From positions 711,457-775,456 of the forward strand of contig AP024679.1 of NCBI GenBank assembly GCA_025999215.1: 64,000 nucleotides of DNA, in the 5' to 3' direction. A program made the position numbers and the translations under genes. Below the pieces are notes generated by a model, which ran no database searches, was not told where the DNA came from, and saw only the letters and a program-made list of their open reading frames with translations. This stretch comes from Candidatus Dojkabacteria bacterium. GTDB taxonomy: Bacteria > Patescibacteriota > Dojkabacteria > J137. Below, one piece after another: positions 2,284-54,589 of the stretch (positions are counted from its first letter, which is position 1; each line of letters opens with the position of its first letter).

Positions 2284-3735
2284 TTAAATAACGTTTATTA
2301 TAATTGGTTTAACCATGCCCATTGAACAAGTTAGTTTATATTTTCCTTCTTTTGGGATACCAAGATCAATGACATTTTCACCGTTTTTTAACCAAACGAA
2401 CCCATCAAACAAACCTGTAGCAGTTATGGCAGCTCCGCACCCTTGAACTCCTTGATTATCAACAAAGAACTTTGCAGGTATTCCAGCTTTTAAAGTCATT
2501 GATGATGTAGGTATATACTCAAAACCTTTTGCAATAATTGAAATTTGTTGAATACCTTCACTATTTATGCCAACTGCATCTAAATTAGAGCTTATTTCAG
2601 AAGAAAAAAATTCTATATCACTTAAGCTTGGTAAACCTAAAACATTTAATTGCCCATTAATGTTGTAAATCGCGAAGAAAATTACAATCAACCCGGCAAC
2701 CACATTAAATTTTGCAGTTAAATCTGGCCTTCTATTAAACACTACCCCACTGTAGCTTATGCCCATAAGAACAGGCAAGGTTCCAAGCGCAAAAGAAATC
2801 ATAATTAAAGATCCTTGTAATATAGAACCGCTTGTTAAAGCTAAAGTTTGTGCAATCAAAGTAAAACCGCAAGGCAAGAAAAATGTAGATGCGCCAATAA
2901 AAAAAGGCATGTATTTCCCTTTGAAGCTTGATTCATCTGCAATTAGTTTACTGAATGCTTTTGGTGTACCAAATCTAAACCTTTGAGCCCACTCTACACC
3001 AATCATTTGCAAAGCCAAAATAAACATAATGATAGATACTAATATAGTAATTAATGCATAGAAATAGTTGTTACTCAAAGAAATAGATTCACCGAGCAAA
3101 CCTAGAAAACCACCAAACAATCCGAAAGAAATCAACCTCCCTGAATGAAATAAGATATGAGGGCTAGCTTTTTCGAAGTTAGATTCAGAATCAATATAAA
3201 GCTCATTCCACTGCTTTATCATCGACAGTAAAACACCACCAACAAGCGCGGCACAACTTGAAAGGCTCGCCACAATACCAAAAACAAAAAATGCAGCAAT
3301 AGATGAGTTTGAATCTACGTTTATATATCTACCTAAACTTAAATTTTCAATACCAAAGAAAATTATTAGGAATGAAATAAAGAAAAATACAATTTTAAAA
3401 AAGTTTTTTAACTTTGAATGATTTATGATTAATTCTCCATTTTTTACTGAAAACAAAGGTAAATCATTTCGTTTTATTTTTTTTGTGTTAAATTTGTAAC
3501 CTAACTCACTAAATTCTTCATTCAATTTTTGAATATTTGGTTGATAATTTCCAACATAACGTATTTCTACCTTTCTTCCTTTTAATGATGCATCAACTGC
3601 TTGTATACCTTCTTGTTTTAGAAGTTTTTTTTCAAGAAGTACTTCACAAGAAGCGCAATGCATTCCATCAACAAATAATGTGCAAGTTTTAACACGATTG
3701 TTTTTACTTTTAGATTTTACTTTCTTTTTGCCCAT
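2284..3735 (-). CDS. HMA-domain membrane protein: N-terminal HMA (GMHCASC) fused to a DsbD_2/TauE-like polytopic permease with intramembrane Cys motifs and a C-terminal soluble Cys/Met-containing beta-rich domain
   Basis: 483 aa. An N-terminal MxCxxC motif is followed by about 8 predicted TM helices carrying SSCAALVGG and FLPCGFTL motifs. The last roughly 100 aa (QGCGAA...TCSMGM) are soluble. Confidence 0.6.
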   Translation of the reverse strand: MGKKKVKSKSKNNRVKTCTLFVDGMHCASCEVLLEKKLLKQEGIQAVDASLKGRKVEIRYVGNYQPNIQKLNEEFSELGYKFNTKKIKRNDLPLFSVKNGELIINHSKLKNFFKIVFFFISFLIIFFGIENLSLGRYINVDSNSSIAAFFVFGIVASLSSCAALVGGVLLSMIKQWNELYIDSESNFEKASPHILFHSGRLISFGLFGGFLGLLGESISLSNNYFYALITILVSIIMFILALQMIGVEWAQRFRFGTPKAFSKLIADESSFKGKYMPFFIGASTFFLPCGFTLIAQTLALTSGSILQGSLIMISFALGTLPVLMGISYSGVVFNRRPDLTAKFNVVAGLIVIFFAIYNINGQLNVLGLPSLSDIEFFSSEISSNLDAVGINSEGIQQISIIAKGFEYIPTSSMTLKAGIPAKFFVDNQGVQGCGAAITATGLFDGFVWLKNGENVIDLGIPKEGKYKLTCSMGMVKPIIINVI

Positions 3736-3743
3736 AAAATATT

Positions 3744-4022
3744 TTATTTGTAATCAAATAAACGCAATAATTCGTCTCTGGTTTTATCTTCTTGTCCATT
3801 TTTAATTTGGTGAACTACGCATGTTTTTAAGTGATCTTCTATAATTAACAAGTCTAGCTTCTTTAGTGCACTTTGAACTGCTCTTGATTGATGAACAATA
3901 TCTACACAATACTCTTCATCCTCAATCATCTGCTGAATTTTTTGAAGATGACCTTGAATTATTTTTATTCTATGAATAGCTTTTTCTTTAACATTATGTC
4001 GTGAAATAGTTTTTTTCTTCAT
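3744..4022 (-). CDS. csoR: CsoR/RcnR-family metal-sensing transcriptional repressor (copper-sensitive operon repressor)
   Basis: 92 aa. It carries the R-x-x-G-H-L-x-x-x-x-x-M, C-x-D-x-x-x-Q-x-x-A and H-L-x-x-C signature of the CsoR family (the C-H-C ligand set). It is the first gene of the copper operon. Confidence 0.8.
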   Translation of the reverse strand: MKKKTISRHNVKEKAIHRIKIIQGHLQKIQQMIEDEEYCVDIVHQSRAVQSALKKLDLLIIEDHLKTCVVHQIKNGQEDKTRDELLRLFDYK

Positions 4023-4039
4023 TTTTAATCATTAATAAG

Positions 4040-4087
4040 TAATCCCCTCTACCAGGATAGGTTATAATGTTTTTTAGAAAAAGTCAA
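4040..4087 (-). promoter_or_regulatory. Candidate promoter plus CsoR operator upstream of csoR
   Basis: On the minus strand there is TTGACT (plus-strand 4082-4087), a 15-nt spacer, then TATAAC (4061-4066). A locally GC-rich pseudo-palindrome, TAATCCCCTCTACCAGGATAGGTTA (4040-4065), sits between the -10 element and the start codon. It resembles the GC-rich inverted repeats bound by CsoR. Confidence 0.25.
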
Positions 4088-4120
4088 CATATTTCCAAAA
4101 ATTTATTTAAAGGAAAATAA

Positions 4121-4195
4121 TGGAGCGAGCAACGGGACTCGAACCCGTATCTCCTGCTTGGAAGGCAGGGATAATAGCCATTATACGATGCTCGC
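4121..4195 (-). tRNA. tRNA-Gly (anticodon TCC), CCA encoded
   Basis: The reverse complement is GCGAGCATCGTATAATGGCTATTATCCCTGCCTTCCAAGCAGGAGATACGGGTTCGAGTCCCGTTGCTCGCTCCA. It has a 7-bp acceptor stem, an anticodon stem CCTGC/GCAGG with loop CTTCCAA, and a T-arm ACGGG-TTCGAGT-CCCGT. Coordinates may be off by one. Confidence 0.85.
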
Positions 4196-4300
4196 TTGAA
4201 CGTAGTCTATTTAATTATAATACTGCTCATCTCAATTTTCAATATATCTCTAAACACCTTAACCTAACAACAAAGTTTCAAACCTTTTTTAAAATTAGTT

Positions 4301-5107
4301 TTAATTGACTCTTTCTAACTGTTCTTCAATAACTTGTTTAAATACGCTGTACGGTTGTGCTCCAGCAACATTTACGCCATCAACATTTCCGTTTTCATCT
4401 AATACACCTATTATAAATCCTGGGGTTCCATTGATTCCAGCTGCAGTTCCATCTTGTATATCTCTTTGTATTTCATCCAAAAATTTATCTGATGCAACAC
4501 AGTTTTTAACTTCATCCTGATTTACTCCAATTTGACTTGCAAGAGTATATAGTTGGTCTTCTTTCATTCCATTTCCGTTAGAATTTGTTGTCTCAAAAAT
4601 TAATTTTGAATATTCAAAGTACTTATCATCTCCAGCAATATCTTGTACACACTCTGCAGCTAGTGCTTGAGTTGTTGCCAACGGATCATGAAAACTCAAA
4701 GGGAAATCTCTGTAAACTATGATTGCTTTTCCAGTATTTACAAATTCTTCTACTATCTGATCAAAAGTTTCCTGGTGATGCCTCTTACAGAATGGACATT
4801 CATAGTCGCTAAATTCAACTATAGCAACTTTAGCTTTATTTCTATCACCTAGTACTGGATCATCATCAATTGATACCTGAGCTTTTACATTAGCATCATC
4901 TGGCACAACAACTGGATCCGCAACATTAGAGCCTGCATCTGATGTTTCTTTTGTATTTATTTGTACATTCTTAAAACTAAAGTAAAAAGATAGTGAAAGT
5001 GATAATGATAAGATAATTGATGAAAGTAAAATTGATGCAGGAGTTAATATCTGTTCTACAGAAAGCTTTATTACTTTTTCATCTGTTGTGTTTTTTTTTC
5101 TTGCCAT
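4301..5107 (-). CDS. DsbA-family thiol:disulfide oxidoreductase (membrane-anchored, extracytoplasmic)
   Basis: 268 aa with an N-terminal TM anchor. The thioredoxin-fold active site is YECPFCKRHH, and the C-terminal GINGTPGFIIG (cis-Pro loop) is typical of DsbA. Confidence 0.75.
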   Translation of the reverse strand: MARKKNTTDEKVIKLSVEQILTPASILLSSIILSLSLSLSFYFSFKNVQINTKETSDAGSNVADPVVVPDDANVKAQVSIDDDPVLGDRNKAKVAIVEFSDYECPFCKRHHQETFDQIVEEFVNTGKAIIVYRDFPLSFHDPLATTQALAAECVQDIAGDDKYFEYSKLIFETTNSNGNGMKEDQLYTLASQIGVNQDEVKNCVASDKFLDEIQRDIQDGTAAGINGTPGFIIGVLDENGNVDGVNVAGAQPYSVFKQVIEEQLERVN

Positions 5108-15857: not shown

Positions 15858-16505
15858 TTAATCTAGAATTTTAGCCAAAGCATCTTCAGTAAATGGGTAA
15901 AAATCGTAACTTATACTAGGATGATTTAAAATAAATAGTTCAATATTAAATTTTTCAAAAGCTTCTTCACTTTGTTTTCTTGCCGCCTCTGCCCCATATG
16001 CATAATTTGTTGATTGAGGTCTCAAGAAAGGTAAATGTTTTTTGTTGATTACGACATATTCTGATGTAAAATTCATATAAGCTTCAAAAACCTCAAATTG
16101 AAATTGTGCACATGCGCTACATTTATAATCTTCATAAATATCTACAACAATGGGTAATTCATCAGCATTTTCTAGCCTTTCATTTATTAAGTCAGTTAAA
16201 GTTTTGCCTGTAACTCTTTGCACATAAACTCCATTTATAGCAACAGTTGGTGTTTGTGCTCCATTAATACCTGCCTCTTTCAAAATTTCTAGTGCTTCAT
16301 TTTTATTTTGTTCAACAATATTTTTAACTTCATCACTTTCATAATCTTCTAAAAAACGATCAACATCTAAGTTTAACTTCTCGGCAATTTGAACAAGATC
16401 AGAGTTTTCAACTCTCTCGTCCCTATAAGCAACAAACAATACTCCCAATACCCCAACTCCAAGTAAAATTGTAATTAACGAAACCAAAAAAGTTTTATTT
16501 TTCAT
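15858..16505 (-). CDS. Thioredoxin-fold DsbA-like oxidoreductase, membrane-anchored (CSAC active site)
   Basis: 215 aa with an N-terminal TM anchor and a CxxC motif (YKCSACAQF). A DsbA-like GAQTPTVAINGVYV (cis-Pro loop) segment precedes the CxxC motif in the primary sequence. Confidence 0.55.
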   Translation of the reverse strand: MKNKTFLVSLITILLGVGVLGVLFVAYRDERVENSDLVQIAEKLNLDVDRFLEDYESDEVKNIVEQNKNEALEILKEAGINGAQTPTVAINGVYVQRVTGKTLTDLINERLENADELPIVVDIYEDYKCSACAQFQFEVFEAYMNFTSEYVVINKKHLPFLRPQSTNYAYGAEAARKQSEEAFEKFNIELFILNHPSISYDFYPFTEDALAKILD

Positions 16506-18659: not shown

Positions 18660-19061
18660 TTATTCCAAATCACCAATATAATATTCTTGCCAATCTTGAG
18701 GCTGTACACTATTGTGAGCCCCTACATTATCAAATACCTGTGTTATATCTTTTCCACAATTTTTGAAGATTGCTTCAGCTCCCCCAGGGTGTTTTTTTGC
18801 ATAATCCGTAACATCGTACACTTTCTCATCATAAACAACATAACAATCGCTTTCAGAATTATGCATAGCTACTTCCTCAAGAGTGAACTTAACATCTGTA
18901 TTTGAAACACTTTCTTTTGATTCTTCTTGAACTTCGTTTCCATCTTTTGCACTAGAATCTAAAGAGTCGTCATCTGATTGATTTTGAAATACAAAAAACG
19001 CAAGAATAGCACTTGAAACTAGCATAAATGCTACCACTACAAACAAAAGGTTTTTCTTCAT
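18660..19061 (-). CDS. Cytochrome b5-like heme-binding domain protein, membrane-anchored and extracytoplasmic
   Basis: 133 aa with an N-terminal TM helix. The C-terminal domain has the HPGG heme-ligand motif (AKKHPGGAEAIFKNCGKDITQVF) and a second His (VGAHN). Confidence 0.75.
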   Translation of the reverse strand: MKKNLLFVVVAFMLVSSAILAFFVFQNQSDDDSLDSSAKDGNEVQEESKESVSNTDVKFTLEEVAMHNSESDCYVVYDEKVYDVTDYAKKHPGGAEAIFKNCGKDITQVFDNVGAHNSVQPQDWQEYYIGDLE

Positions 19062-19111
19062 AATTTAAAAGATAAAATTTAAATCTAAGTTAATTTATCA
19101 TAAATCTAAAT

Positions 19112-19435
19112 TTAATCCAAATCAACGGGAAATACGACTTCCCCAGTATCTTTTTTGATTATCTTTATTGCAAAAACTGGACAAGACTGAGCGCCAGCCA
19201 AAATAATCTCATCTTCATCAAAGTTTTCAGTATCTAATCTCAACTGTGCTTTATTTTCTTCGTCCATGAAAAAAGTTTCAGCAGCAATTGCAGCGCATGA
19301 AGCAGCACCAATACAAACATTTCTATCATATTCAATAATGTATTTACTAGTTTCAGAAGTTGCTCTAAAAACCCCAGGTTTAATTTCTTCTATTATTATT
19401 CCATTTTTGTTTTTGATAATTTTTGAATTATTCAT
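19112..19435 (-). CDS. Single-cluster ferredoxin (CxxAxxC...CP, 3Fe-4S-type motif)
   Basis: 107 aa. CIGAASC...AQSCPVFAI matches the mono-cluster ferredoxin pattern, with the second Cys replaced by Ala. Confidence 0.6.
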   Translation of the reverse strand: MNNSKIIKNKNGIIIEEIKPGVFRATSETSKYIIEYDRNVCIGAASCAAIAAETFFMDEENKAQLRLDTENFDEDEIILAGAQSCPVFAIKIIKKDTGEVVFPVDLD

Positions 19436-19498
19436 AATTTTATTTTAAAATTTATTCGCGATAAGACATTTTAGCTTTAAACGTTTAAATTTTTCAAG

Positions 19499-19927
19499 AT
19501 GGTTACAAAAAAAAATATTATGATTTTTGTAAGTTTAGTGGGTTTAGCAGTTTCAACGTATCTTGCTTATCTTTACTCTCAACCAGAACCCATAGTTTGC
19601 GCAACAGACTGTGAATTGGTTCGGGAAAGCAAATATTCTACTCTTTACGGTATAAAAGTTCCTATTTTAGGAATAATTTTTTATACCACCTCACTGATAG
19701 CGCTATTTCTTAAAAATAACAAAAAAATAGGTAGTTTTATAAACTTCTTTCTTCAAATAATGCTAACTACTGGTTTTATATATTCTATTTATTTAACCTT
19801 CATAGAAGTTTTTGTGATTAATGCAATATGCCAATGGTGTGTGGTATCAGCGATTTGTTCGTTGTTGTTGTTTGTAATTCACACCTCCGCATTTCTTGAG
19901 TTTTTAGAAAAAAGAAAAATTGTATAA
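19499..19927 (+). CDS. Vitamin K epoxide reductase (VKOR) family protein, a DsbB analogue
   Basis: 142 aa with 4 TM helices. It has the loop Cys pair CATDC and the active-site CQWC at the start of TM4, as in bacterial VKOR. Confidence 0.7.
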   Translation: MVTKKNIMIFVSLVGLAVSTYLAYLYSQPEPIVCATDCELVRESKYSTLYGIKVPILGIIFYTTSLIALFLKNNKKIGSFINFFLQIMLTTGFIYSIYLTFIEVFVINAICQWCVVSAICSLLLFVIHTSAFLEFLEKRKIV

Positions 19928-21147: not shown

Positions 21148-22488
21148 TTAGAAAATTATATAATCTCTCTCATCTCCATATACTCTTTTATCAAAAACTT
21201 TTGGAATAATGTTTGTACTCATTTTACTTTCATAATCAATAAGACCTTTTTTCAAGTCGTCAAAAGAATTTATAAAATATAAATATTTTTTGATATCTTC
21301 ACTTAAATTCAAAGATCTTATCAATTCCGTCACTTTCGTGTTCCATGAATTTCCAAATAAATACACAGGTTTAGATGTAGCTCCATAAAGCGATATAAAT
21401 TCAAGTAAGTTAGCCAAAAAATTAAAGGTTGAATGATGAGAATCATCAAAAAATATAAAGTATCTACATTCCTTGATGAAAAAAATCATTTTTTCAAATA
21501 AATTTGAATAGTAAAAAAACGTCACATTATCACCTGGAGAAACTTTTAAAGTTTGATCATTTTGCATAGACTCAAAAGGCGAAAAAACAACAACTGTTGA
21601 TTTTACATTCTTATTTGCAACTCTATTTACAATTGATACATTTTTTCCGGTATTCACATCAAACAAAACCCTACCTGGATTAGTTACATAAAAATTAACT
21701 AATTCCTTCAAAAAATTTTCATCTACGACATTACTTTGATTAAATCCTACAACTCCTGGTTTAGTTAAAACTTTTATTTTACTAGTATTAAAATCTTTCT
21801 CCTCATATGAACTGTTGGTTTCGGTCTTTTTATACCATTTTTTATCGTATCTATTAATTTTATCTGAAGAATTATTTGCATTTTTTGATTGCCCAGCTAA
21901 ATCTGTATTTATGGTTTCAGCATTGGCTTCTTTGTCTTTGTCAGCATTTTGATCTTGTGTGTTCTGATTATCTAAGTTTTGATTATTTTTATTTGCTTCC
22001 AATTTTTGATCCATATTGGAATCTATATTTAATTCAGAACTATTATCAGAAGCTGCATCCTTTTCTATTTGAATGTCATCAGCTGGATTATCATCAAAAA
22101 GCTTGGTATTTAAATTTGATTTTTGCATATCCATTTGTGTATCAACGCTTTGTTCTGTATTATTTTGTGAATTGTTTGCATTTACCTCAAGGTTAGTATT
22201 CTGTTGAGTTTCATCCTTGCTTTGATACTCATTCTGAATTGGCGAAGGATTAAAATTATTTACGTCTGAATTTAAATTTGACTGTGAAAACTCACCCGAT
22301 TGCCCTCCCACTTGATTTTCTAAACTTGCATTTGAAAATTCATTAACTTGCGCTTGGGCTTCTTTAGCCTGATCAGTGCTTTGTAGTTGTTGTTCTTGCG
22401 GAATATTTGTAGTTACTTGAGCATTTTGATACTGATTCACTGTGTCAGAATTCGTGGAATTTTCATTTAAAAAATTTGGATTAGACAT
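21148..22488 (-). CDS. Hypothetical protein with a Q/N-rich low-complexity N-terminal half and a structured C-terminal domain
   Basis: 446 aa. Residues 1 to about 200 are Gln/Asn/Ser-rich. The C-terminal roughly 230 aa have ordinary composition with no motif recognised. Confidence 0.45.
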   Translation of the reverse strand: MSNPNFLNENSTNSDTVNQYQNAQVTTNIPQEQQLQSTDQAKEAQAQVNEFSNASLENQVGGQSGEFSQSNLNSDVNNFNPSPIQNEYQSKDETQQNTNLEVNANNSQNNTEQSVDTQMDMQKSNLNTKLFDDNPADDIQIEKDAASDNSSELNIDSNMDQKLEANKNNQNLDNQNTQDQNADKDKEANAETINTDLAGQSKNANNSSDKINRYDKKWYKKTETNSSYEEKDFNTSKIKVLTKPGVVGFNQSNVVDENFLKELVNFYVTNPGRVLFDVNTGKNVSIVNRVANKNVKSTVVVFSPFESMQNDQTLKVSPGDNVTFFYYSNLFEKMIFFIKECRYFIFFDDSHHSTFNFLANLLEFISLYGATSKPVYLFGNSWNTKVTELIRSLNLSEDIKKYLYFINSFDDLKKGLIDYESKMSTNIIPKVFDKRVYGDERDYIIF

Positions 22489-22589
22489 TTGTAGATTCTT
22501 GTTGACCTAAATTTTCACTTTGAGCATCAAAAGTTTGAGATTGCAGAATATGCTGGATCCTTGCGAAACCATTGCGGTTTGGCTCAACG

Positions 22590-22982
22590 TTAGATGTTTG
22601 AGTCTGAGTTTTTTTGCATTTCTAACTCTTGTTGCCACTTTAACGGATCAAAATCATCCTGTTGGTTGGCTACATTTTGTACATTTTGATTTAAAACTGG
22701 TTGCGGAATTTGAGAAAAATCATCATTGAGAGGTGTTGGATCAGCAAAATTCTCTTGATTTATGTTTGTATTTAAATTTTGCTGATTAGAATAATTTTGA
22801 CTCTGAGTTAAATTATTTGAGTTGCTGGAATACTGAGTGTTAGCATTTGACTGTGATTGCAAATTATTTCCTTGGTTATCGTTTTGTGTCTGTTGTGAAT
22901 TACCTCCACTAATCGGAGGTTGCACTAAACCTGATTGGTTTTTATTATCTTTGTCTTTTTTGCCAAAATCGAAAATTCCCAT
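22590..22982 (-). CDS. Q/N-rich low-complexity small protein
   Basis: 130 aa with QNxNQ-type repeats. It lies directly upstream of, and on the same strand as, the 446-aa Q/N-rich protein. Confidence 0.4.
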   Translation of the reverse strand: MGIFDFGKKDKDNKNQSGLVQPPISGGNSQQTQNDNQGNNLQSQSNANTQYSSNSNNLTQSQNYSNQQNLNTNINQENFADPTPLNDDFSQIPQPVLNQNVQNVANQQDDFDPLKWQQELEMQKNSDSNI

Positions 22983-24212: not shown

Positions 24213-25649
24213 TTGTATTATAACACTAAAGTTTTACTTTACAAAACTCAATATCTAAAATATAATTTGTTTGTGAAAAACAAATATCAAAAATATCTCG
24301 ATGAACTAATTGAATTACTGAAAATTCCAAGTATCTCCTCTTTGCCTACACATAAAAAAGATACTTTAAAAGCAGCAGAATTCATTATTGATGAATTAAA
24401 AAAGATTAATTTCAAAACGGAGTTATTTTACAGTAAAAAATATGGGGAAGAAAATCATTATCCTGTTATTTTCGCTGAAAAAATTTCAAATCCCAACAAC
24501 AAAACTATACTGATTTATGGTCACTATGATGTACAACCAGTTGATCCATTAACTGAATGGCTTACTGATCCTTTCAACCCAGAAATTAAGGAAGGTAAAA
24601 TCTATGCCAGAGGGGTAAATGACAATAAAGGTCAACTCTATACACATATTGCAGCACTCAAAGAATTAGATAAATGCTGGGGAGATAACTGGCCTGTGAA
24701 TGTAAAAATAATTTTTGAAGGTGAAGAAGAAAGTGGTGGCGAGACAATTGAAGCTTTTATTGATGAAAATAAAAATAATTCACTTTTGAAAGCGGACGTT
24801 TGCCTAGTCTCAGACACCCCTTGGATTAACAAAGATACTCCAGCAATACTAACTGGTTTACGAGGTATTGTTTATACACAAATTGATGTTAAAGCTTTTG
24901 ATGGTGATTTGCATTCTGGTGAATTTGGAGGAGCTGTCAGAAATCCCGCAAATGACCTTGCTTTTATAATTTCTAAACTTAAAGATGAAATTAGTGGAAA
25001 AATTTTAATACCTAACTTTTATGACAATGTTAAAGATTTTTCAAGTAATGAAAGAGAATTATTAAATAGTATCCCAGAAACAGAAAAACAATTTTTGAAA
25101 AATGCAAAAAATGCTAAAAGCACATTTATAGAATCTGGATACACTTTTATCGAAGGAAAAACAGTCAGACCAACGCTAGATGTAAATGGAATGTGGAGTG
25201 GATTTACTGAGGAAGGAGCCAAAACCATCATACCAGCAACAGCTCACGCAAAAGTAAGCATGAGGCTTGTACCCAATCAAGATCCCGAAAAAATATTTGA
25301 ATTATTTAAAAATTATGTGTTAAATATAGCTCCTGAGGGTCTAGATATAAGCGTTAATTTGATACATGGTGGCGAGTGGGTATCGACTTCAATTGATTCT
25401 GATTATGTTAAAATTGCTCAAAAAGCAATTAAAAAGGTTTTCAAAAAAGAAGCGCTTTTTTTCAAAGAAGGAGGATCAATTCCAGCAATTGCCAAAATAC
25501 AAAAAGCTTTAAATGTCGAGCCTGTTTTTTTGGGGTACGGGTTGCCAGATGATGCTTTACATAGCCCAAATGAAAAATTTGATTTAGACCAATTTTTTGG
25601 TGGTATTGATTGTAATATTGAGTTTTTTAAGTTAATATCAAAATCATGA
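24213..25649 (+). CDS. M20-family dipeptidase/deacylase (ArgE/DapE/ACY1/CPG2 family)
   Basis: 478 aa with YGHYDVQPVD, GVNDNKGQL and GEEESGG motifs. The true start is probably downstream, for example the GTG near 24273. It ends in a TGA stop overlapping the gatA ATG (ATGA). Confidence 0.8.
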   Translation: MYYNTKVLLYKTQYLKYNLFVKNKYQKYLDELIELLKIPSISSLPTHKKDTLKAAEFIIDELKKINFKTELFYSKKYGEENHYPVIFAEKISNPNNKTILIYGHYDVQPVDPLTEWLTDPFNPEIKEGKIYARGVNDNKGQLYTHIAALKELDKCWGDNWPVNVKIIFEGEEESGGETIEAFIDENKNNSLLKADVCLVSDTPWINKDTPAILTGLRGIVYTQIDVKAFDGDLHSGEFGGAVRNPANDLAFIISKLKDEISGKILIPNFYDNVKDFSSNERELLNSIPETEKQFLKNAKNAKSTFIESGYTFIEGKTVRPTLDVNGMWSGFTEEGAKTIIPATAHAKVSMRLVPNQDPEKIFELFKNYVLNIAPEGLDISVNLIHGGEWVSTSIDSDYVKIAQKAIKKVFKKEALFFKEGGSIPAIAKIQKALNVEPVFLGYGLPDDALHSPNEKFDLDQFFGGIDCNIEFFKLISKS

Positions 25650-27065
25650 GAAATAGTTTAGATATTCCTCAAATACCAAAGATAAAAGAAATAGTGAGTT
25701 TGGTAAAAACGGGTGATATTAAACCTACTGATCTAGTTAAAGAGCACATCAAAAGAATTAAAAATACCGAAAAAAATTTAAATGCCTTCATAACAATTTT
25801 AGAAAAAGAAGCCCTTGAGAGAGCAAAACAAATTGAAGCGGAAATAAAAAAAGGAAATTTAAATGGAAAACTCCTTGGTATACCTTTCACCGTAAAAGAT
25901 TTATATCTTGTAGAAGATACAATAACAACTTTTGCATCGCAGTATATGAAGGATTTTGTAGCTCCTTATACTTCAACAGTTGTAAAAAAAGCTTTGGATG
26001 AAGGTGCTATTTTGATAGGAAAAACAAATTGTGATCCTTGGGGTTTTGGAGGAAGCGGAGAAAATTCAGGTTTTGGTCCGAGTAAAAATCCTTATGATTT
26101 AGAAAGAGTTCCGGGGGGGTCTAGTTCTGGCTCAGCTGCAAGCTTAGCTGCTGGAATTGGATTTTTCTCCTTAGGCACAGACACAGGAGGATCAGTGAGA
26201 TTACCTGCAAATTTCTGTGGCCTTTATGGATATAAGCCTACATACGGAAGAAACTCAAGGTTTGGAATTGGAGTCATGGCAAGCTCATTTGACACTCCTG
26301 GATTCTTTGCTAGACATATCGAAGATATTGAATTACTAGAAGAAATTTTTGAAGGAGTTGATGAAAACGATCAAACAACTGATATTGCTCCAGAGAGTAG
26401 AAAAAAAAGAAAAATTAAAGTTTGGTTTGCCGCTTGAATATTTTGAAGAAAATTTTGATAAAGATACTAAAGACGCAATAAATCAAATAACTGAATCATT
26501 AAGAAGTTCTGGCTACTCGATAGAAAATGTATCGATTCCATCTAGCAAATTTGGCTTAAGTGTATACTACATTCTAGTGCCATCAGAAATTTCGTCAAAT
26601 AGAGCGCGATACGACGGTGTTAGGTATGGTCCCTTTGTTTCTGAAGAATATGAAGAAAACTTAGTTGAAGGAAGAAGTAAATATTTTGAAGATGAAGTAA
26701 AAAGAAGAATAATGATAGGAACTTATGCACTTAGCGCAGGTTACGGTGATGAGCTTTATCTTAAAGCTACAAAAGTTAGAAACAAAATCAAGCAAGAATT
26801 TGACGAAGCATTTAAAAAAGTTGATATACTTTTAGCTCCAACATCACCATCGAAAGCTTTCAAACTAGGTGAAAAAATTAATGATCCTATTTCAATGTAT
26901 CTAACTGATCTCTACACTGTAAATGCCAACATTACTGGAATACCAGCAATAAATATTCCGTTAGGCATAAAAGACAGATTACCAATTGGAATGCAGTTAA
27001 TGGCTCAAAGATGGAATGATGAATATTTATTTCAAGCTAGTAGAGTTATTAGAGAGCTTTCTTAG
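25646..27065 (+). CDS. gatA: Glutamyl-tRNA(Gln)/Asp-tRNA(Asn) amidotransferase subunit A, frameshifted in this sequence within an A8 run near 26398-26408
   Basis: The two overlapping track ORFs are in different frames (25646 = frame 2, 26349 = frame 0). Together they cover a full-length amidase-signature GatA: GGSSSGSAAS, then after the shift KFGLPLEYF and the C-terminal PAINIPLG. The shift falls in GAGAGTAGAAAAAAAAGAAAAATTAAAG. Confidence 0.75.
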
Positions 27066-29890: not shown

Positions 29891-30190
29891 TTAATCACAA
29901 TATGGAAAAATATCTTCTGTTTCATCCCCATAAATTTCCCTAAGTTCATCACATTGTTCAGAAAGCTTATCCTCAACAGCATCAATGCCAGCATCTGATG
30001 CGAAAAATCCTAATGCATAGAAACCTACACAACAGCATGCGCAACAAAAAAATATAAATCCTAAAACTCCCAAAATAATCAACAATGTTTTGTTATTTGA
30101 AGATGCTTGGGAAGTAGCATTATTTGATTTTTCTTGAACCTCAGTTGGCTCAACGGCTTCAACTTTTTTTTGATTTTTTTTCTCAGACAT
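29891..30190 (-). CDS. Small membrane protein with a poly-Cys TM motif and an acidic Cys-containing tail
   Basis: 99 aa. It has a single TM helix containing FFCCACCCVGF and a C-terminal SEQCDEL...FPYCD. Confidence 0.4.
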   Translation of the reverse strand: MSEKKNQKKVEAVEPTEVQEKSNNATSQASSNNKTLLIILGVLGFIFFCCACCCVGFYALGFFASDAGIDAVEDKLSEQCDELREIYGDETEDIFPYCD

Positions 30191-43987: not shown

Positions 43988-45757
43988 CTAAATTCGTAAT
44001 TTTAACTTTTTGAACACTGGTTCAAGAAATTTTCTAAAGATTTTTAGTTCTTCGACTTTTAACAAGGCACTCATCAGGATATATACGGCTATCCCCGTGC
44101 TGACAGTTATACTTGTTAAAATAGCTAAGTTTAAAGTGGTTGAACCTCGATATTGCGGCCCTGCTCTGTCTGGAAAAGAATAACTCAAAACATTCCACAT
44201 TTTGTATATAAAGTACATTATCAAAAACATGATTAAAGAACTTAAAAATTTTTTAAATGTTTGGATGAAAATATCTTTTAAATCTAGTTTTATAAATTTT
44301 TTATGGAAAAAATAAAGAAGCATTGTAAATTCGAAAAAGTACGAAAAGCTCATAGCCAAAGCAATCCCTCCAATCCCTGCTGGATGGCTACCTCTAGTCA
44401 AAAAATTATCAATTGTAAATGTAATTTGAGAGATTGCATAGTCATTGTTATGACTCATAAGATTTGAAAAAATAAGCCCCAAAATTATTGTAATTACTAA
44501 ACTACTAAGCGCTACACCAAAAGGAATTAGTGTATTTTTGCCCGCATAAAAAAGGCGAAACATGAACCACTTTCCAGCCAAAAAAACCCATCCTAAAGAA
44601 AACCACATTAGTATCCATGCAACCTGACTTGAAGCTTCAAGGTCAAAGTTTGTGTTTGGTAATAACCCGTATGTCAACCTAACAACAGGCAACCTCATGG
44701 CAGTAAAAATCATTGTAAAAGGTAGCGCCAAAAATAAAATTTCTTGAAGAGTTTTTTGCACAATATCTTTTACTTTATTTAATTCTTGAGATTCAAACAA
44801 TCTTGACAAAGTTGGATAGGAAGCATAAGAAAAAGTAAAACCAAAAAGTGTTGGAATTACAAGGGAAATTGAATTAGCGTAAAACAAAGCTGAAGGCCCA
44901 ACTTGATTAATTCCATATGCCAAAAACTTATTGAAAGTTAAAACAATGTGTTCTGATGCCAGGGCAAACATTCTTGGTATACCCAAAACTCCTAACTCCT
45001 TGATATATTTTGAATGAATATCTACAACAGGTAACCACTTTAAATCAAGACTTCTGTACAAAGGAAGCTGAATTATTAAATGCAAAATAGAACCAACATA
45101 AGTTCCAATGATTACAGCCCAAGGACTATTGTTTAAAATTGGTAAAAAAATTAAAAGAGAAAGAATTCTTCCTATATTAAAAAACAAAGGAGCAAAGTTA
45201 GGAATCAAAAACCTATCATAAACATTTATACCGTTAGAGACAAAAATACTAATTCCTAAAATCATTTGAGGAACTAGAAGGGCTCTTAACATGTTAGCAA
45301 TTCTTACATAATCACTTGAGGTAATATTTTGACTGGCTTCTCCTCCAAAAATATTTATTATACTTGGAATGAGCGCGCCTGCTGAAATAAACAAAACGAC
45401 AGAAATTAATACAAATACTAAAATTGATAAATTAATGATCGTACTATAGACTCGATAAAAAGTTTCCTTACCCTCATTTTTAGCAGATATAAGAATAGGT
45501 ATCACAAGAGAACCAACAGCTCCAGCCAAAAAAACATTTGTTATTAACTCAGGAATTGCATTTGCGATTATAAATTGATTCCAGCCAGGGTCTTGTGTAC
45601 CAAAGTACGACGCAGCCAAAAGATTAAATAATTGCCCAGTTACCTTCGTAAGCAACGTAGGGATCATTAATAGGAAAGCCGTTTGCAAAATATGTGTTTG
45701 CTCCTTACTTAACAATGTATTAATCTGCTTGATTTTTCTTTGTACAATCTTAGTCAT
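43988..45757 (-). CDS. murJ: Lipid II flippase MurJ (MviN)
   Basis: 589 aa with about 14 TM helices and MurJ/MOP-superfamily N-terminal features. Confidence 0.75.
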   Translation of the reverse strand: MTKIVQRKIKQINTLLSKEQTHILQTAFLLMIPTLLTKVTGQLFNLLAASYFGTQDPGWNQFIIANAIPELITNVFLAGAVGSLVIPILISAKNEGKETFYRVYSTIINLSILVFVLISVVLFISAGALIPSIINIFGGEASQNITSSDYVRIANMLRALLVPQMILGISIFVSNGINVYDRFLIPNFAPLFFNIGRILSLLIFLPILNNSPWAVIIGTYVGSILHLIIQLPLYRSLDLKWLPVVDIHSKYIKELGVLGIPRMFALASEHIVLTFNKFLAYGINQVGPSALFYANSISLVIPTLFGFTFSYASYPTLSRLFESQELNKVKDIVQKTLQEILFLALPFTMIFTAMRLPVVRLTYGLLPNTNFDLEASSQVAWILMWFSLGWVFLAGKWFMFRLFYAGKNTLIPFGVALSSLVITIILGLIFSNLMSHNNDYAISQITFTIDNFLTRGSHPAGIGGIALAMSFSYFFEFTMLLYFFHKKFIKLDLKDIFIQTFKKFLSSLIMFLIMYFIYKMWNVLSYSFPDRAGPQYRGSTTLNLAILTSITVSTGIAVYILMSALLKVEELKIFRKFLEPVFKKLKLRI

Positions 45758-48095: not shown

Positions 48096-48307
48096 GAACT
48101 TTTACATTAATAAATAAACTTTTAGTTTCTTGTAACCCATACAATCTTACCATAAAGTCAAAAGGTATGAGGAATATAATTCATGAAAAACTAAACGTCG
48201 AAGAGAAGAGAAAAAGTTGAAGTCAACACTTTCTTTTCGCTTCGAAATAATGTTTAACTTTTCTAAGAAACTATTAAATTTTACCACAAAAATAATCTTG
48301 ACTCAAA

Positions 48308-49459
48308 TTATTTATTTTTTAAGATCTTTTTTTCAAATTTATTTCTAGACCTTAAAAATGTTTTTTTTGCTAATTTAATGTTAGCTTTATCGATCTTTGG
48401 TTTTGAATTTAAAGATTTTAAAATATTTTGAAATAGCAAATCCAATTTTGCATAGTCTATTTGTGTAGCAACCAGAGCACTTACCAACAAGCTTAAACCA
48501 ATTAATAATCTAGAGTTATCGCTGTCAAAAATCGCAGTCTCTGGAATCTCAGGCTTTTCATTAATTACATTACACAAACTTTCATCACAGTCAAACCCTT
48601 GCGTACATTCAGTAAGAACACACCTACCATTTGAACAAACATTTCCTTCTGGACATTGTTGAGAATTAACACAAGTATCTCCACAGAATTTAGGTGCTTC
48701 ACAACTTCCGCCTACCGCTTGGTTACAATTTGGATTACTGGTATAACCTGCTGGACAAGTTTCAGCTTGAAATGTTTGCGATTCACAAGCATCTCCATCC
48801 CCTTCTTGTGGAGTACACCTATAACAAGTGATTTCAGGTGTTTCAGGTGGTTGACATTCAAAACCTCCACTACATCTACATGTTGCAGCAATTGGGTTTG
48901 GATCAGATACATTGTTAACAATGTCAATCTGTACACACTTGCAAGGCGCATATGGATCATAGGTAGCACCAGGATTAAGGTTTTGAACACTTAAACTATA
49001 ACCTGGTTCATTTGAATCTTGCTCACTCACGAAACAATCGCTAAATTTAGTATCTGTACCGTAATAATTTTTCTCAAATCTTTTTACAATCAAGCTACTT
49101 GAACACGCCTGAGTTGTTCTAAGGGCTCCACCTACATTCGTAATTGAACAAGAGGGACCTGCGCCAGGAGTCCCAGTTGTTGAACAAAATACTTGAGGAT
49201 CAATATTTGCTTGTCTTACCCCTCCCTTGTCTGCGCAATAAATTCTCGCTCTTTCATTACACTCAAAGGGCGAATTTCTATCGTCTCCTGCTTCGCTTCC
49301 ATCATTACATAAAATCCTTCCACAACAATATGTACTTGCACTACTATCATCAGGAGCTGTATCCTCTTGTAATAGCATAAAACCAATGTATACAGAAGCT
49401 ACCCCTAACAATAAAGTTAGCACAGTAAAAATCGCAATAGCTATCTTTCGTGAACTCAT
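48308..49459 (-). CDS. Cysteine-rich secreted/surface protein (about 40 Cys) with an N-terminal signal anchor and a C-terminal hydrophobic segment plus Lys-rich tail
   Basis: 383 aa. The ectodomain is full of CxxC, CxC and C-x(4-8)-C spacings. Residues 330-345 (LLIGLSLLVSALVATQ) are followed by a K-rich tail. The ORF's coding GC looks higher than that of its surroundings. Confidence 0.5.
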   Translation of the reverse strand: MSSRKIAIAIFTVLTLLLGVASVYIGFMLLQEDTAPDDSSASTYCCGRILCNDGSEAGDDRNSPFECNERARIYCADKGGVRQANIDPQVFCSTTGTPGAGPSCSITNVGGALRTTQACSSSLIVKRFEKNYYGTDTKFSDCFVSEQDSNEPGYSLSVQNLNPGATYDPYAPCKCVQIDIVNNVSDPNPIAATCRCSGGFECQPPETPEITCYRCTPQEGDGDACESQTFQAETCPAGYTSNPNCNQAVGGSCEAPKFCGDTCVNSQQCPEGNVCSNGRCVLTECTQGFDCDESLCNVINEKPEIPETAIFDSDNSRLLIGLSLLVSALVATQIDYAKLDLLFQNILKSLNSKPKIDKANIKLAKKTFLRSRNKFEKKILKNK

Positions 49460-49505
49460 ATTTTTAATATAATTCTTAATAATATAACAAAATTTTTAAA
49501 CAAAG

Positions 49506-51011
49506 TTAAACATCATTTTTTAATTTTTTGTAATACTCTTCCGCTTTTTGTAGCAGCAAATCTTTTGAATTTAATAAAGGATCATCAATTACTTCTTCAA
49601 TTAAAGCATTTAGTATTTTGCCAACAATAGGTCCTGCCGAAATTTTTAAGTGTTTCTTTATATCTTCTCCATTTATATCTAAATCCTTAATTGAAATTGC
49701 CATATCTTTTGATCGAACTTGTGCTATTCTCTCAGCTAAAGCATCAAGTTCTTTTGGGTTGAATTTAAAAAGTGGATTTGCGCTTGCATCAGCAATTCTT
49801 AGTTTCATTAAGTCTTCTACGGCATCCTCTCCACCTACATTTCTAATAAATCTCCTTATCGCTGCATCACTCCAACCGTGAGTATCTGTGTCGTCATGTT
49901 TTTCAAAAAAAGTTTTCTGATTTGGATCAAAACCTTGATCTATTTTTTCTTTACGCCAATCTGCACTGGGATAATAAAACATATGCCATCTTACAAGTTT
50001 ACTTACTCTTTCAATTTCTGATTTAGGAAATTTTAATCTTTGCATTATTTTTTTTGTGATTTCAGCCCCTTTAACATCATGCCCATAAAAATGAACTCCT
50101 TTTTCATCAACTGTTTTCGTAAAAGGTTTGCCAATATCATGGAAAAGCGCCGCCAGCTTGACTGAGTCTTCAGCAAAATCCACAGCGAGAATGGAATGTT
50201 CAAAAACATCGTAAGCATGAACTCCAGGTTGAGTTACACCAACACCTTCCACAAGCTCAGGTATAAAAATTTCTAAAATTCCGGTTTGTTGCATTAATCT
50301 AAGACCAGTAGATGGTTTGTTCGCTTTTCTTAGTAATTTAAGCAATTCATCTCTAAACCTTTCGACTGATATGTGTTTGGTCACATTTAGTGTTTTAGAT
50401 ATTGCGTTAAGTGTATTTGGTTCTATTGTAAAATTTAGTTGCGCTGCAAGCCTGCAGGCTCGAACTGCTCTTAATCCATCTTCACTAAACCTTTCTATAG
50501 GATTACCACATGCTCTTATAATTTTTCTCTTTAAATCACTAATACCATCAAATGGATCAATTAAGATTTGTTGAATAGAAATATCTGGATTATCAAATTC
50601 TTGCAAATTTAAAGCAATCGCGTTTATTGTAAAGTCGCGTCTTTTTAAATCATCATAAATATTTCTAGTAAATTCAATTTTAGATGGCCATCGTCCACCT
50701 ACATAATCTTCTTCACTCCTGTATGTTGTGATTTCTACGTTTCTAGTTTCACCTTCATCATCTTGTAATACAACAGTGATGGTACCAAATGTAGCACCAG
50801 TTGGAATTGATTTAGGAAATATCTTTTCAATTTCGTGAGGTAGAGCATTCGTTGCTACATCATAATCATCTGGAATTAAACCCAAAAGTATATCTCTCAC
50901 ACTTCCACCCACTAGATGTGCTTCAAAACCATGATTTTGCAACTCTTCAGCAATGTCTAAAATATACTTAGGAATTCTTTGTACAAATTCTGAAACTCTA
51001 AGTTCTAGCAT
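49506..51011 (-). CDS. cca: CCA-adding tRNA nucleotidyltransferase / poly(A) polymerase family with an HD domain
   Basis: 501 aa. The head domain is GGSVRD...DYDVAT, followed by an HD phosphohydrolase domain (HDIGKP). Confidence 0.8.
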   Translation of the reverse strand: MLELRVSEFVQRIPKYILDIAEELQNHGFEAHLVGGSVRDILLGLIPDDYDVATNALPHEIEKIFPKSIPTGATFGTITVVLQDDEGETRNVEITTYRSEEDYVGGRWPSKIEFTRNIYDDLKRRDFTINAIALNLQEFDNPDISIQQILIDPFDGISDLKRKIIRACGNPIERFSEDGLRAVRACRLAAQLNFTIEPNTLNAISKTLNVTKHISVERFRDELLKLLRKANKPSTGLRLMQQTGILEIFIPELVEGVGVTQPGVHAYDVFEHSILAVDFAEDSVKLAALFHDIGKPFTKTVDEKGVHFYGHDVKGAEITKKIMQRLKFPKSEIERVSKLVRWHMFYYPSADWRKEKIDQGFDPNQKTFFEKHDDTDTHGWSDAAIRRFIRNVGGEDAVEDLMKLRIADASANPLFKFNPKELDALAERIAQVRSKDMAISIKDLDINGEDIKKHLKISAGPIVGKILNALIEEVIDDPLLNSKDLLLQKAEEYYKKLKNDV

Positions 51012-53026: not shown

Positions 53027-54589
53027 TTGAGTAACCCTGACACATTTAAAAGTTCGATTACTTCAATACCTTTATCAAAGGAAAGGAAAAGTGAAGACTT
53101 TTATAATTTTTTAAAATTTTTAAGAGAAAATAATTACGATATAGATTATATAGACTTAAATTTTTTGGCTAGATTATTTTTTTTCTTCAAACATCTAGGA
53201 ATTTCTGCTTACCATCAAATTTATGAAGAAATACAAAGAATATTAAATTTTGATTTTATAAAATTTTTAATTTTTTTGGAAAACAATAATTTTAATTTTA
53301 ATAGTAAAAACGCCTTTGAAGAAATATATAACTTTGTACAACATAATATACCAAAAAGTCAACAAATACATGAACTGTATTTGGAATTTCTAAAAACTCA
53401 ACACATAACATTTAACAATAAAAGAGAATATATATTACACGATAAAGGGTTTTTCGAAATAGTTGATTATTTTCAAAAAACTTTTTATATTGATTTTTCG
53501 AGTGAAAAGTACACTTTGGTAAAACTTTTAATATTTTTGTTTAAAGATAATACTGCAAATACGGTCGAAAATTATGCTCAACACCTCATGGAAAAGAGAA
53601 TACAGAGTCTACAACTCTTACTTCTCTCAAATTTACCAGAAGACTTACTTAATAATAATATTTTAAGAAATATATTAACATCCGAAAAATTAACAACTTA
53701 TGTCATAGATTTATTACAAAATAATTGGGATCAAATAATCGACTCCTTTCCTGAAGACAAAAAAACTTCTTTAATCATAATGTTTAATTGGATTATTGAA
53801 TTGCTTAATACTAAGCCTCAAATTACTCAAGAAATAAAATTGTTTTATGAACAAACATTAGAACCTGAAAGAATTTTAATTAATAAAATAGTTTTAAAGT
53901 ATAATTCTGAACTCAACCAAGCTATCAGTAAATTTAAAAATCTCGATACTTACGAGATTTTTTTAGATTTTCTTAATGAAACTCAAGAAATTGATGAAAG
54001 AATAAAAAGCATATTAGAATATAACGAGTGTTACGATCCCGCTGAATTGTATTCCTTGGTGATTTACGAAACTTATACATTTCAAGCTGATATCAAAGAT
54101 TTTTTATACAATTTTTTTGATACTGAAGAACAAACTGAAATAAATTCATTATTTATTAATTTGTTTTTTGAGTATATTTTTTTAAACTTAGATATTAATA
54201 TACTATCAAAACTTATACAAGGAAATATTATTGTTACGAGAAAATTTTTAAGTTTCGTTGAAAGTAAAATTATAAATGGAGTCTTTAAAGATTACTTAAG
54301 TGAAAGATTAAAAATATGCTTTATTCATATTTTCAACCAAACTCAAATAACAGGAATACAACTTAAAATTTTAGAGGTTTCTTTTGAATGTTATAAAAAA
54401 CGTAAAATTAGTAGTGAAGATTTTAAAGCTTTTATAAATTTTGTTAAGAAAAATTGCGACACCAACAATCTTGTTAGGTATGCAAATATGATGTATTTAA
54501 GTGGATATACTTCGTCAATGTATTTACATGAAAGTAATGAATTTATTGATTTCATAAACCGTAACCTCGGAGGTATATCTTTTAATTAA
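53027..54589 (+). CDS. Hypothetical protein (orphan, N/F/I/K/L-rich, soluble)
   Basis: 520-aa ORF with no recognisable motif. Its composition is biased but not purely repetitive. Confidence 0.4.
   Translation: MSNPDTFKSSITSIPLSKERKSEDFYNFLKFLRENNYDIDYIDLNFLARLFFFFKHLGISAYHQIYEEIQRILNFDFIKFLIFLENNNFNFNSKNAFEEIYNFVQHNIPKSQQIHELYLEFLKTQHITFNNKREYILHDKGFFEIVDYFQKTFYIDFSSEKYTLVKLLIFLFKDNTANTVENYAQHLMEKRIQSLQLLLLSNLPEDLLNNNILRNILTSEKLTTYVIDLLQNNWDQIIDSFPEDKKTSLIIMFNWIIELLNTKPQITQEIKLFYEQTLEPERILINKIVLKYNSELNQAISKFKNLDTYEIFLDFLNETQEIDERIKSILEYNECYDPAELYSLVIYETYTFQADIKDFLYNFFDTEEQTEINSLFINLFFEYIFLNLDINILSKLIQGNIIVTRKFLSFVESKIINGVFKDYLSERLKICFIHIFNQTQITGIQLKILEVSFECYKKRKISSEDFKAFINFVKKNCDTNNLVRYANMMYLSGYTSSMYLHESNEFIDFINRNLGGISFN

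Follow-up and report, generated by a model that had tools for sequence, protein, structure and literature searches.

A putative cell-surface protein with swappable cysteine-rich modules and a long-tailed sortase-type signal in Candidatus Dojkabacteria

In a 64,000-nucleotide stretch of the genome of an ultra-small Candidatus Dojkabacteria bacterium (GenBank assembly GCA_025999215.1, contig AP024679.1, positions 711,457 to 775,456 of the forward strand; the whole stretch is referred to as the window, with coordinates counted from its first letter), the open reading frame (ORF) at 48308-49459, here called the target, probably encodes a lineage-specific, modular and disulfide-rich surface protein that is exported via the general secretory (Sec) pathway, oxidised by DsbA/VKOR-type enzymes, anchored in the manner of sortase substrates and equipped with an ectodomain that varies between lineages. 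Its product is identical to the GenBank entry 'hypothetical protein KatS3mg085_735' of the Candidatus Dojkabacteria metagenome-assembled genome (MAG) GCA_026004355.1. A preliminary description had placed the ORF at exactly these coordinates, which were borne out on the minus strand with a length of 383 amino acids, and had taken the product for a eukaryote-like disulfide-knot protein of the cell surface, perhaps of horizontal origin; the disulfide-rich surface protein is retained here, whereas the eukaryote-like and horizontal parts of that interpretation had to be dropped.

According to the scheme that we propose, the leader (amino acids 1-41) would direct Sec export, and signal peptidase I would cut after APDDSSA. 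Outside the membrane, the ectodomain would be oxidised by a DsbA/MdbA-like oxidoreductase that is in turn recycled by VKOR; the genes and active sites of both are present, and the target is their presumed substrate. The C-terminal transmembrane (TM) helix and the basic tail would hold the protein in the membrane until a sortase cleaves IPETA between Thr and Ala and joins Thr308 to lipid II and hence to peptidoglycan, a step suggested by the motif architecture and by the common occurrence of the enzyme in the phylum. A conserved extra element of this signal may be represented by the long tail, with R-x-x-[F/Y]-E-x-[K/R]-Φ at its end. Relatives would keep leader and anchor in the same genomic slot, with the passenger modules in between being exchanged, duplicated or expanded.

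Leader and C-terminal sorting signal

An N-terminal hydrophobic segment (amino acids ~5-31), a C-terminal hydrophobic stretch (~316-337) and a Lys-rich tail behind the latter had all been recognised before and are evident from the sequence; what had been missed is the sorting signal, as this C-terminal stretch comes after a conserved IPETA. In the family, the leader comprises an R-[KR]-I n-region, ~22 hydrophobic residues with a conserved central L-T and then Q-[ED]-Q-A-P-[DE]-D-S-[SA]-A, and its hidden Markov model (HMM) matches 48 of 74 proteins. The consensus of the leader end, A-P-x-[DE]-[STGA]-[SGA]-A, obeys the -3/-1 rule of signal peptidase I, and given the small residues at -1 and -3 together with Pro at -6, cleavage by this enzyme after A41 is likely. 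A twin-arginine translocation (Tat) signal, considered on account of the S-R-[RK]-I n-region, was rejected because the core is very hydrophobic and a Cys-rich protein oxidised outside would be expected to travel via Sec; a class III (prepilin) signal was rejected because there is no G|F-T-L-x-E-type motif.

At the other end, immediately behind module C, the pentapeptide follows [LI]-P-x-T-[AGS] across the family (L 41 and I 13 at the first position; A 32, G 13 and S 6 at the last) and is separated by a linker of a median 8 amino acids from the TM helix, which in the target exceeds 1.6 on the Kyte-Doolittle scale. Tails in the family have a median length of 47 amino acids (range 5-63), and R-x-x-[F/Y]-E-x-[K/R]-Φ is found in 47 of 55 proteins as compared to 15% of shuffled tails, lying a median 8 residues before the C-terminus. 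Judged by its sequence, the combination of pentapeptide, linker and TM helix is the architecture of a sortase-type sorting signal, to which the long conserved tail is a non-canonical addition. As in LPXTG signals, the pentapeptide of the target is located near the C-terminus, a hydrophobic span follows the motif, and the protein starts with an N-terminal secretion signal.

Leader and C-terminal signal occur together in 45 of the 74 proteins, an association that is biased upward because the set was gathered with a query holding both ends; 3 proteins have the leader alone and 10 the tail alone, several of the latter being N-terminally truncated fragments. The passengers between the two ends vary from protein to protein, and the long-tail signal is also present on proteins of the loci L006 and L019 that are not Cys-rich, which suggests that it serves as a general sorting signal of the clade.

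Cysteine-rich modules and homologues

With 28 cysteines (7.3%), the target ranks first among the 53 ORFs of the window (mean 0.92%, z = 5.4); the ~40 cysteines claimed earlier were an overcount. CxxC and CxC patterns do exist as stated then, but they are sparser than claimed (one CC, one CxxC, namely CYRC, and two CxC), and the C-terminal third shows a regular C-x3-5-C spacing. The pattern as such is conserved: all 28 cysteines are kept in the closest homologue P0002 (73% identity), and the cysteine number of the two repeated modules described below is retained in most copies (6 Cys in 96 of 101 copies of module B, 8 Cys in 119 of 132 copies of module C).

In Pfam and NCBIfam, the target has no match at E <= 10. 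A word-indexed search of 5.8 billion proteins returned four relatives, HMMER, run exhaustively over 1.84 billion representatives, returned 71, and a word-indexed search with the family alignment at least five proteins. A 6-sequence alignment of the C-terminus led to one locus in JGI metagenomes and to no confirmed relative in the GTDB representative genomes, a collection in which the source genome is evidently not included. Iteratively built HMMs divide the target into six parts, that is, leader, modules A1, A2, B and C, and C-terminal signal, so that the ectodomain of ~267 amino acids is made up of four modules with 6, 8, 6, and 8 cysteines (Table 1), none of which has a Pfam or NCBIfam model. 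Module A2 is predicted to be beta-rich, with strands in the AlphaFold 2 (AF2) model at a predicted local distance difference test (pLDDT) score of ~63-77. Module B, a 'TCYRCT...DGNxCES...CPxG' repeat with the spacing C-x2-C-x9-C-x9-C-x9/10-C-x7/8-C, is present in 105 copies in 32 proteins and has no relative in Pfam or the PDB. Module C (C-x3-C-x5-CP-x4-C-x4-C-x4-C-x5/6-C-x4-C) amounts to 133 copies in 54 proteins. Both B and C are repeats in related metagenomic proteins, which likely come from bacteria of the Candidate Phyla Radiation (CPR). Passengers of other family members include DUF11, an RrgB-type isopeptide domain and dockerin, all typical of Gram-positive wall proteins.

A resemblance to EGF, granulin or TNFR repeats, the first two of which were proposed in the preliminary description, found no supporting match in profile searches. 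For EGF-like domains, Pfam gave no match at E <= 10, and the module C profile reached E = 4 against the EGF domain of fibrillin. Granulin has 12 Cys with four CC pairs, of which the target has one; it likewise had no Pfam match, and granulin-1 aligned with module C at E = 0.23-0.36. TNFR cysteine-rich domains were matched in Pfam neither by the target (E <= 10) nor by any of 72 relatives. For module C, there are only weak hints towards DPY or knottin-like folds: its profile aligns with Drosophila Dumpy DPY (PF21164; PDB 1OIG) over 22 residues of the core C-x5-CP-x4-C-x4-C at a marginal E = 3.6e-4, and Pfam Dumpy_DPY is matched by 4 of 72 relatives (best E = 2.9e-5), the target itself being without a Pfam match. 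The AF2 model of module C is confident (pLDDT 90.3), and its nearest Foldseek neighbours are mostly inhibitor cystine knots, that is, knottin mini-proteins such as squash trypsin inhibitors and toxins, along with Dickkopf/colipase-type domains. Given these neighbours, one could picture an array of knottin-like mini-domains that is shed or secreted and works against a host or competitor, either as a toxin or by inhibiting proteases, an explanation that we regard as quite improbable. The AF2 model of the whole ectodomain, built from a 7-sequence alignment, is of low confidence (pLDDT 59.8), and its FN3/Ig-like Foldseek matches (E >= 0.03) were disregarded.

Modules B and C also turn up in other settings. 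The giant proteins P0015, P0026 and P0031 (1682-1977 amino acids) carry 5-13 module B repeats, are devoid of both leader and LPxTA signal, and have in common a different conserved end, ...F-K-W-D-G-L-x-I-K-G-G-x-Y...R-P-x-H-L-F..., at the C-terminus, which may be a further domain for sorting or assembly. Proteins of module C repeats with Pro/Thr linkers stand at the end of rpsT-PilN-PilO clusters of other CPR lineages (L007, 4358-11281; L008, 1949-7579; L009, 5054-10684), following large Cys-rich and fn3-like proteins, and terminate in LPKAG or VPKAG and a TM helix with no tail; the wall genes LCP and FemAB lie near the one in L008.

A variable slot between core genes

The neighbours of the target are core genes, coding for peptide deformylase, the CCA-adding enzyme, PNPase, MurJ and NusA, and the order def-cca-[slot]-pnp-murJ recurs in L003, L005, L011, L012/L013, L014, L017 and L019. 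In these relatives, the slot is occupied by one to five genes of the leader/anchor type with differing modules (Table 1). Identity to the window amounts to 50-84% for the flanking genes, 41-68% for the leader and 24-42%, over partial coverage, for the ectodomain. As the ectodomain of P0002, which comes from the same sequencing run, is about as conserved as the neighbouring genes (see below for the values), diversification proceeds by replacement of modules from one lineage to another, with no evidence of rapid point substitution. L005 and the window both stem from sample DRR290133, i. e., two related Dojkabacteria populations occur in one hot-spring run, with target orthologues that are 73% identical and flanks that are 78-84% identical.

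Constant ends and swapped modules in one slot are what one would expect if a surface protein interacts with other cells, which makes adhesion the likeliest role. Streptococcal M and M-like proteins similarly combine a conserved signal at one end and a conserved anchor at the other with a central part that can be exchanged. Like these, the family has a constant 5' leader and 3' anchor, a variable modular centre and tandem paralogues at one locus; unlike in M proteins, the variation is seen between lineages only, with no sign of switching within a population, and no DNA-level repeats, donor cassettes, template/variable pairs like those of diversity-generating retroelements or tandem repeats were found to be associated with the target gene.

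The genomic context also bears on the idea that the target belongs to a type IV pilus, as one of its components or as tip adhesin, rather than being an independent wall-anchored protein. Type IV pili are the best-documented host-binding organelle of CPR (PMC6744442; PMC11623550), and the module C repeat proteins P0073 and P0074 are encoded at the 3' end of PilN-PilO clusters of other CPR lineages. The target, however, lies outside any pilus cluster, between cca, pnp and murJ, and has no class III signal, and P0073 and P0074 differ from it in their C-terminus (LPKAG/VPKAG and TM helix, no tail) as well as in having no leader, so that we give this idea very little credence.

Table 1. Features of the target gene, of other window genes discussed in the text and of the corresponding slot in related loci (aa, amino acids).
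Feature	Position in window	Strand	Description
Whole ORF	48308..49459	-	383 aa, 28 Cys
N-terminal leader	49337..49459	-	aa 1-41: basic n-region (SRK), ~23 hydrophobic residues, c-region QEDTAPDDSSA
Module A1	49157..49327	-	aa 45-101, 6 Cys (CCGRILC...); rare, only 4 proteins
Module A2	48845..49150	-	aa 104-205, 8 Cys, CKCVQIDI motif; only P0001, P0002, P0003
Module B ('CYRCT' repeat)	48701..48832	-	aa 210-253, 6 Cys
Module C	48572..48685	-	aa 259-296, 8 Cys
Sorting pentapeptide IPETA	48533..48547	-	aa 305-309; presumed sortase cleavage T308/A309
Presumed sortase cleavage after Thr			peptide stretch ...EKPEIPETAIFD...
Acidic linker and TM helix	48458..48532	-	linker IFDSDNSR (aa 310-317); helix aa 318-334, conserved Gly
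Basic cytoplasmic tail	48311..48457	-	aa 335-383, 49 aa
Tail end motif R-N-K-F-E-K-K-I	48323-48346	-	aa 372-379
Promoter-like site	49481..49509	-	consensus match only; not enriched over shuffles
MurJ lipid II flippase	43988..45757	-	conserved syntenic neighbour of target
VKOR	19499..19927	+	PF07884; loop Cys34/38 and CQWC; presumed reoxidant of DsbA-like oxidoreductase
DsbA/MdbA-like oxidoreductase	4301..5107	-	membrane-anchored, canonical; CPFC, GTPGF cis-Pro loop; presumed oxidant of the 28 Cys
DsbD_2/CcdA-type membrane protein	2284-3735	-	fused N-terminal heavy-metal-associated (HMA) domain; CASC
Second DsbA-like protein	15858-16505	-	membrane-anchored, 215 aa; CSAC, Pfam matches in permuted order
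Slot in L003			three tandem genes: A1-C; C; A2-DUF4215-C
Slot in L011			several proteins, among them one of 1072 aa and one of 869 aa with 6+ module B and 5+ module C copies
Slot in L012			protein with 3x module C
Slot in L019			B-only protein
Slot in L014, L017			short LPDTA protein and 676-aa module B/dockerin-like protein

Composition and native origin

The raised guanine-cytosine (GC) content that had been noted for the ORF is real, as its ~36.5-36.6% is the highest value of the 53 ORFs (mean 31.8%), but the excess is confined to codon position 2 (46.4%, z = 3.8), with GC1 being average and the synonymous composition native. GC at codon position 3 is 20.3% (rank 42 of 53), an index modelled on the codon adaptation index gives z = +0.65 against the other 52 window genes, and the GC content expected from the amino acids of the target under window codon usage is 37.0% as compared to 36.6% observed. 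The elevation therefore results from amino-acid composition, and the native third codon position, codon usage and synteny refute the horizontal acquisition proposed earlier. An island gene transferred horizontally was likewise ruled out, since the synonymous composition is not deviant and the slot is occupied in relatives. The gene is thus native to its genome and sits in a vertically inherited slot; it is neither imported nor eukaryote-like. Horizontal acquisition of a eukaryote-like protein of the EGF, granulin or TNFR type, in favour of which one might cite the cysteine content, the window's highest GC and the Dumpy matches of module C and of four relatives, is contradicted by the tests of composition and synteny and hardly credible. 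The true compositional outlier, unlike the target, is the 520-aa ORF at 53027-54589 (+) with no Pfam match, which lies in the stretch of lowest GC in the window (23-24%).

In the 46-bp gap upstream of the target, a candidate promoter TTAACT-17-TATATT with TG can be recognised. An imperfect 39-nt inverted repeat (48245-48283 and 49480-49518, 72% complementary) flanks the ORF in both intergenic regions and is probably due to chance in AT-rich DNA, as the window holds 17 such pairs.

Redox, cell-wall and sortase machinery

The preliminary description had connected the protein to VKOR/DsbA machinery of the same window. Such proteins are indeed encoded here (VKOR by its match to PF07884, the DsbA-like proteins by CPFC and CSAC), but at a distance of 29-46 kb, and none adjoins the target. 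An MdbA-like oxidoreductase is enriched in CPR and often adjoins VKOR (PMC6744442). Within 2284-5107 (-), the DsbA-like protein at 4301-5107 and the DsbD_2 protein at 2284-3735 form a second redox pair. In the DsbA-like protein at 15858-16505, DSBA profile positions 121-190 align with amino acids 33-111 and the CxxC-bearing N-terminal part of Thioredoxin_4 with amino acids 118-187; the protein has no match among PDB sequences and may be either a thioredoxin fold with circular permutation or two truncated copies fused to each other. Next to VKOR, in divergent orientation, lie a 4Fe-4S ferredoxin (19112-19435, -) and a cytochrome b5-like haem protein that is exported (18660-19061, -). CPR are generally considered to be devoid of quinone biosynthesis; if so, the VKOR neighbourhood (18660-19927) might hint at an alternative electron route.

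MraZ, MraW, a penicillin-binding protein (PBP) transpeptidase, MraY and MurJ are all encoded in the window, which shows that the organism makes peptidoglycan precursor, the acceptor for sortases. Sortases are present in seven other Dojkabacteria/Patescibacteria loci (PF04203, E ~1e-22 to 1e-25, with the His/Cys/Arg positions in place), and a search with an alignment of Dojkabacteria sortases returned 561 clusters, several of them named 'sortase [Candidatus Dojkabacteria bacterium]'. More than half of CPR genomes have a sortase according to Méheust et al. (2019; PMC6744442). The Dojkabacteria enzymes (~265 amino acids; L026, 4594-5415; L028, 2715-3533; L039, 3118-3918 and similar) have a conserved cytoplasmic N-terminal …EWN[IV]P…KK… before the TM helix and sit in a conserved sortase-dnaJ-nusA-infB-pnp neighbourhood.

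Several observations weigh against the scheme proposed here. The hydrophobic core of the leader (~23 amino acids) is long enough for an uncleaved anchor, and the tail, although basic, has 49 amino acids and is thus far longer than in canonical LPXTG signals, which have a short one. TIGR01167 misses the target (E <= 10) and is matched only weakly by 3 of 72 relatives (best E = 0.018). Searches with a TLxTC motif, with a clade HMM and, for nearly every mid-sized ORF, with Pfam brought up no sortase in the 64-kb window, nor did motif and clade HMM find one within 10 kb of any family member. A sortase of the source MAG is absent among the 120 matches listed of the 561, so that enzyme and substrate were not found together in one genome, and the loci with a sortase come from Dojkabacteria of a clade further away (PNPase identity 38-40%); the main gap is that a sortase was not found alongside a long-tail family member in any genome searched. 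The ectodomain of P0002 (81% identity) does not evolve faster than the neighbouring genes (78-84%). Finally, adhesion to a host or partner cell, the likeliest role and a plausible one given the episymbiotic lifestyle of cultivated CPR, is something that we purely infer.

The strongest rival, though still an unlikely one, is a doubly anchored integral membrane protein with both ends uncleaved and the Cys-rich part forming an extracellular loop, in which the tail motif binds a cytoplasmic partner as in a receptor or scaffold. The TM length of the N-terminal core would be in line with this arrangement, as would the long tail (median 47 amino acids), the conserved end motif of which suits a cytoplasmic function better than simple retention, and the fact that scans of the window found no sortase. 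It leaves unexplained, however, why a near-invariant [LI]PxT[AGS] precedes the TM helix at a fixed distance of ~8 residues and why the c-region of the leader obeys the -3/-1 rule throughout the family; moreover, in the slot neighbours in L014 and L017, LPDTA and a TM helix are followed by a tail that is short and canonical. We hence favour export with cleavage of the leader and sortase-type anchoring.

Comparison with known systems

A surface protein with a sortase signal that is oxidised by an MdbA/VKOR-type system is of an already known kind. No description of the long tail with its FE motif, of the coupled leader, of either repeat module or of the variable slot came up in Pfam, NCBIfam or a targeted search of the full-text literature, and these features thus appear to be undescribed. 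Like the LPXTG-type sortase substrates of Gram-positives, for which NCBIfam TIGR01167 is the curated anchor model, the family has an export signal, a passenger and [L/I]PxT[A/G], followed by a hydrophobic helix and a C-terminus of basic character, and some members carry DUF11 or the RrgB-type isopeptide domain; LPXTA and LPNTA variants are recognised by some sortase classes. Unlike these substrates, it has a tail of ~47 amino acids with R-x-x-[FY]-E-x-[KR]-Φ at its end instead of a few basic residues, an acidic linker of ~8 residues and a conserved family-specific leader, and the target is missed by that model. A bolder reading, possible though rather doubtful, is that leader and long-tail signal constitute an undescribed sorting system of one Dojkabacteria/Patescibacteria clade, with the tail motif being read by a specialised sortase or a cytoplasmic partner, and mark a hypervariable host-interaction locus beside pnp-murJ.

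With regard to oxidative folding, the gene content resembles the MdbA/VKOR system of Actinomyces oris and Corynebacterium (PMC6744442) in that a membrane-anchored DsbA/MdbA-like protein and VKOR are found with sortase-type substrates and no outer membrane, as judged here from the genes. The actinobacterial MdbA substrates (pilins) have few disulfides, whereas the target would need ~14 in ~267 residues. Myxococcus-type repeats (TIGR02232 / PF13948 DUF4215) are comparable as bacterial, extracellular and Cys-rich elements and serve as alternative passenger in six family members including the syntenic P0003; in contrast to these, the target has no DUF4215 but four distinct modules (A1, A2, B and C), for none of which a model exists.

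Other features of the window

A GatA-type amidase at 25646-27065 (+) is split over two overlapping ORFs in different frames, with Pfam Amidase positions 1-220 in 25646-26437 and 230-444 in 26349-27065. A frameshift or an error in sequencing could account for this, or the gene could truly be split. At 29891-30190 (-), a 99-aa predicted membrane protein with no Pfam match contains FFCCACCCVGF in a TM segment and two more Cys near its C-terminus. Two adjacent N/Q-rich low-complexity ORFs of 446 and 130 amino acids occupy 21148-22982 (-), the longer one being without a Pfam match.

Significance

Cultivated CPR/Patescibacteria are all episymbionts attached to other microbes, and their host recognition is largely obscure beyond type IV pili (PMC11623550). 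The family described here combines sorting signals with swappable disulfide-rich modules at one conserved locus, a signature by which candidates for surface or adhesion proteins can be searched for in one Dojkabacteria clade at least. With its 14 predicted disulfides, the target would lend itself as a substrate for testing the MdbA/VKOR pathway that is enriched in CPR. Even should the signal prove ordinary, the gene is native and not eukaryote-like, and a suitable annotation would be that of a Cys-rich surface protein with putative dependence on sortase; if the proposed reading is true, the long conserved tail would represent a new flavour of sortase sorting signal.

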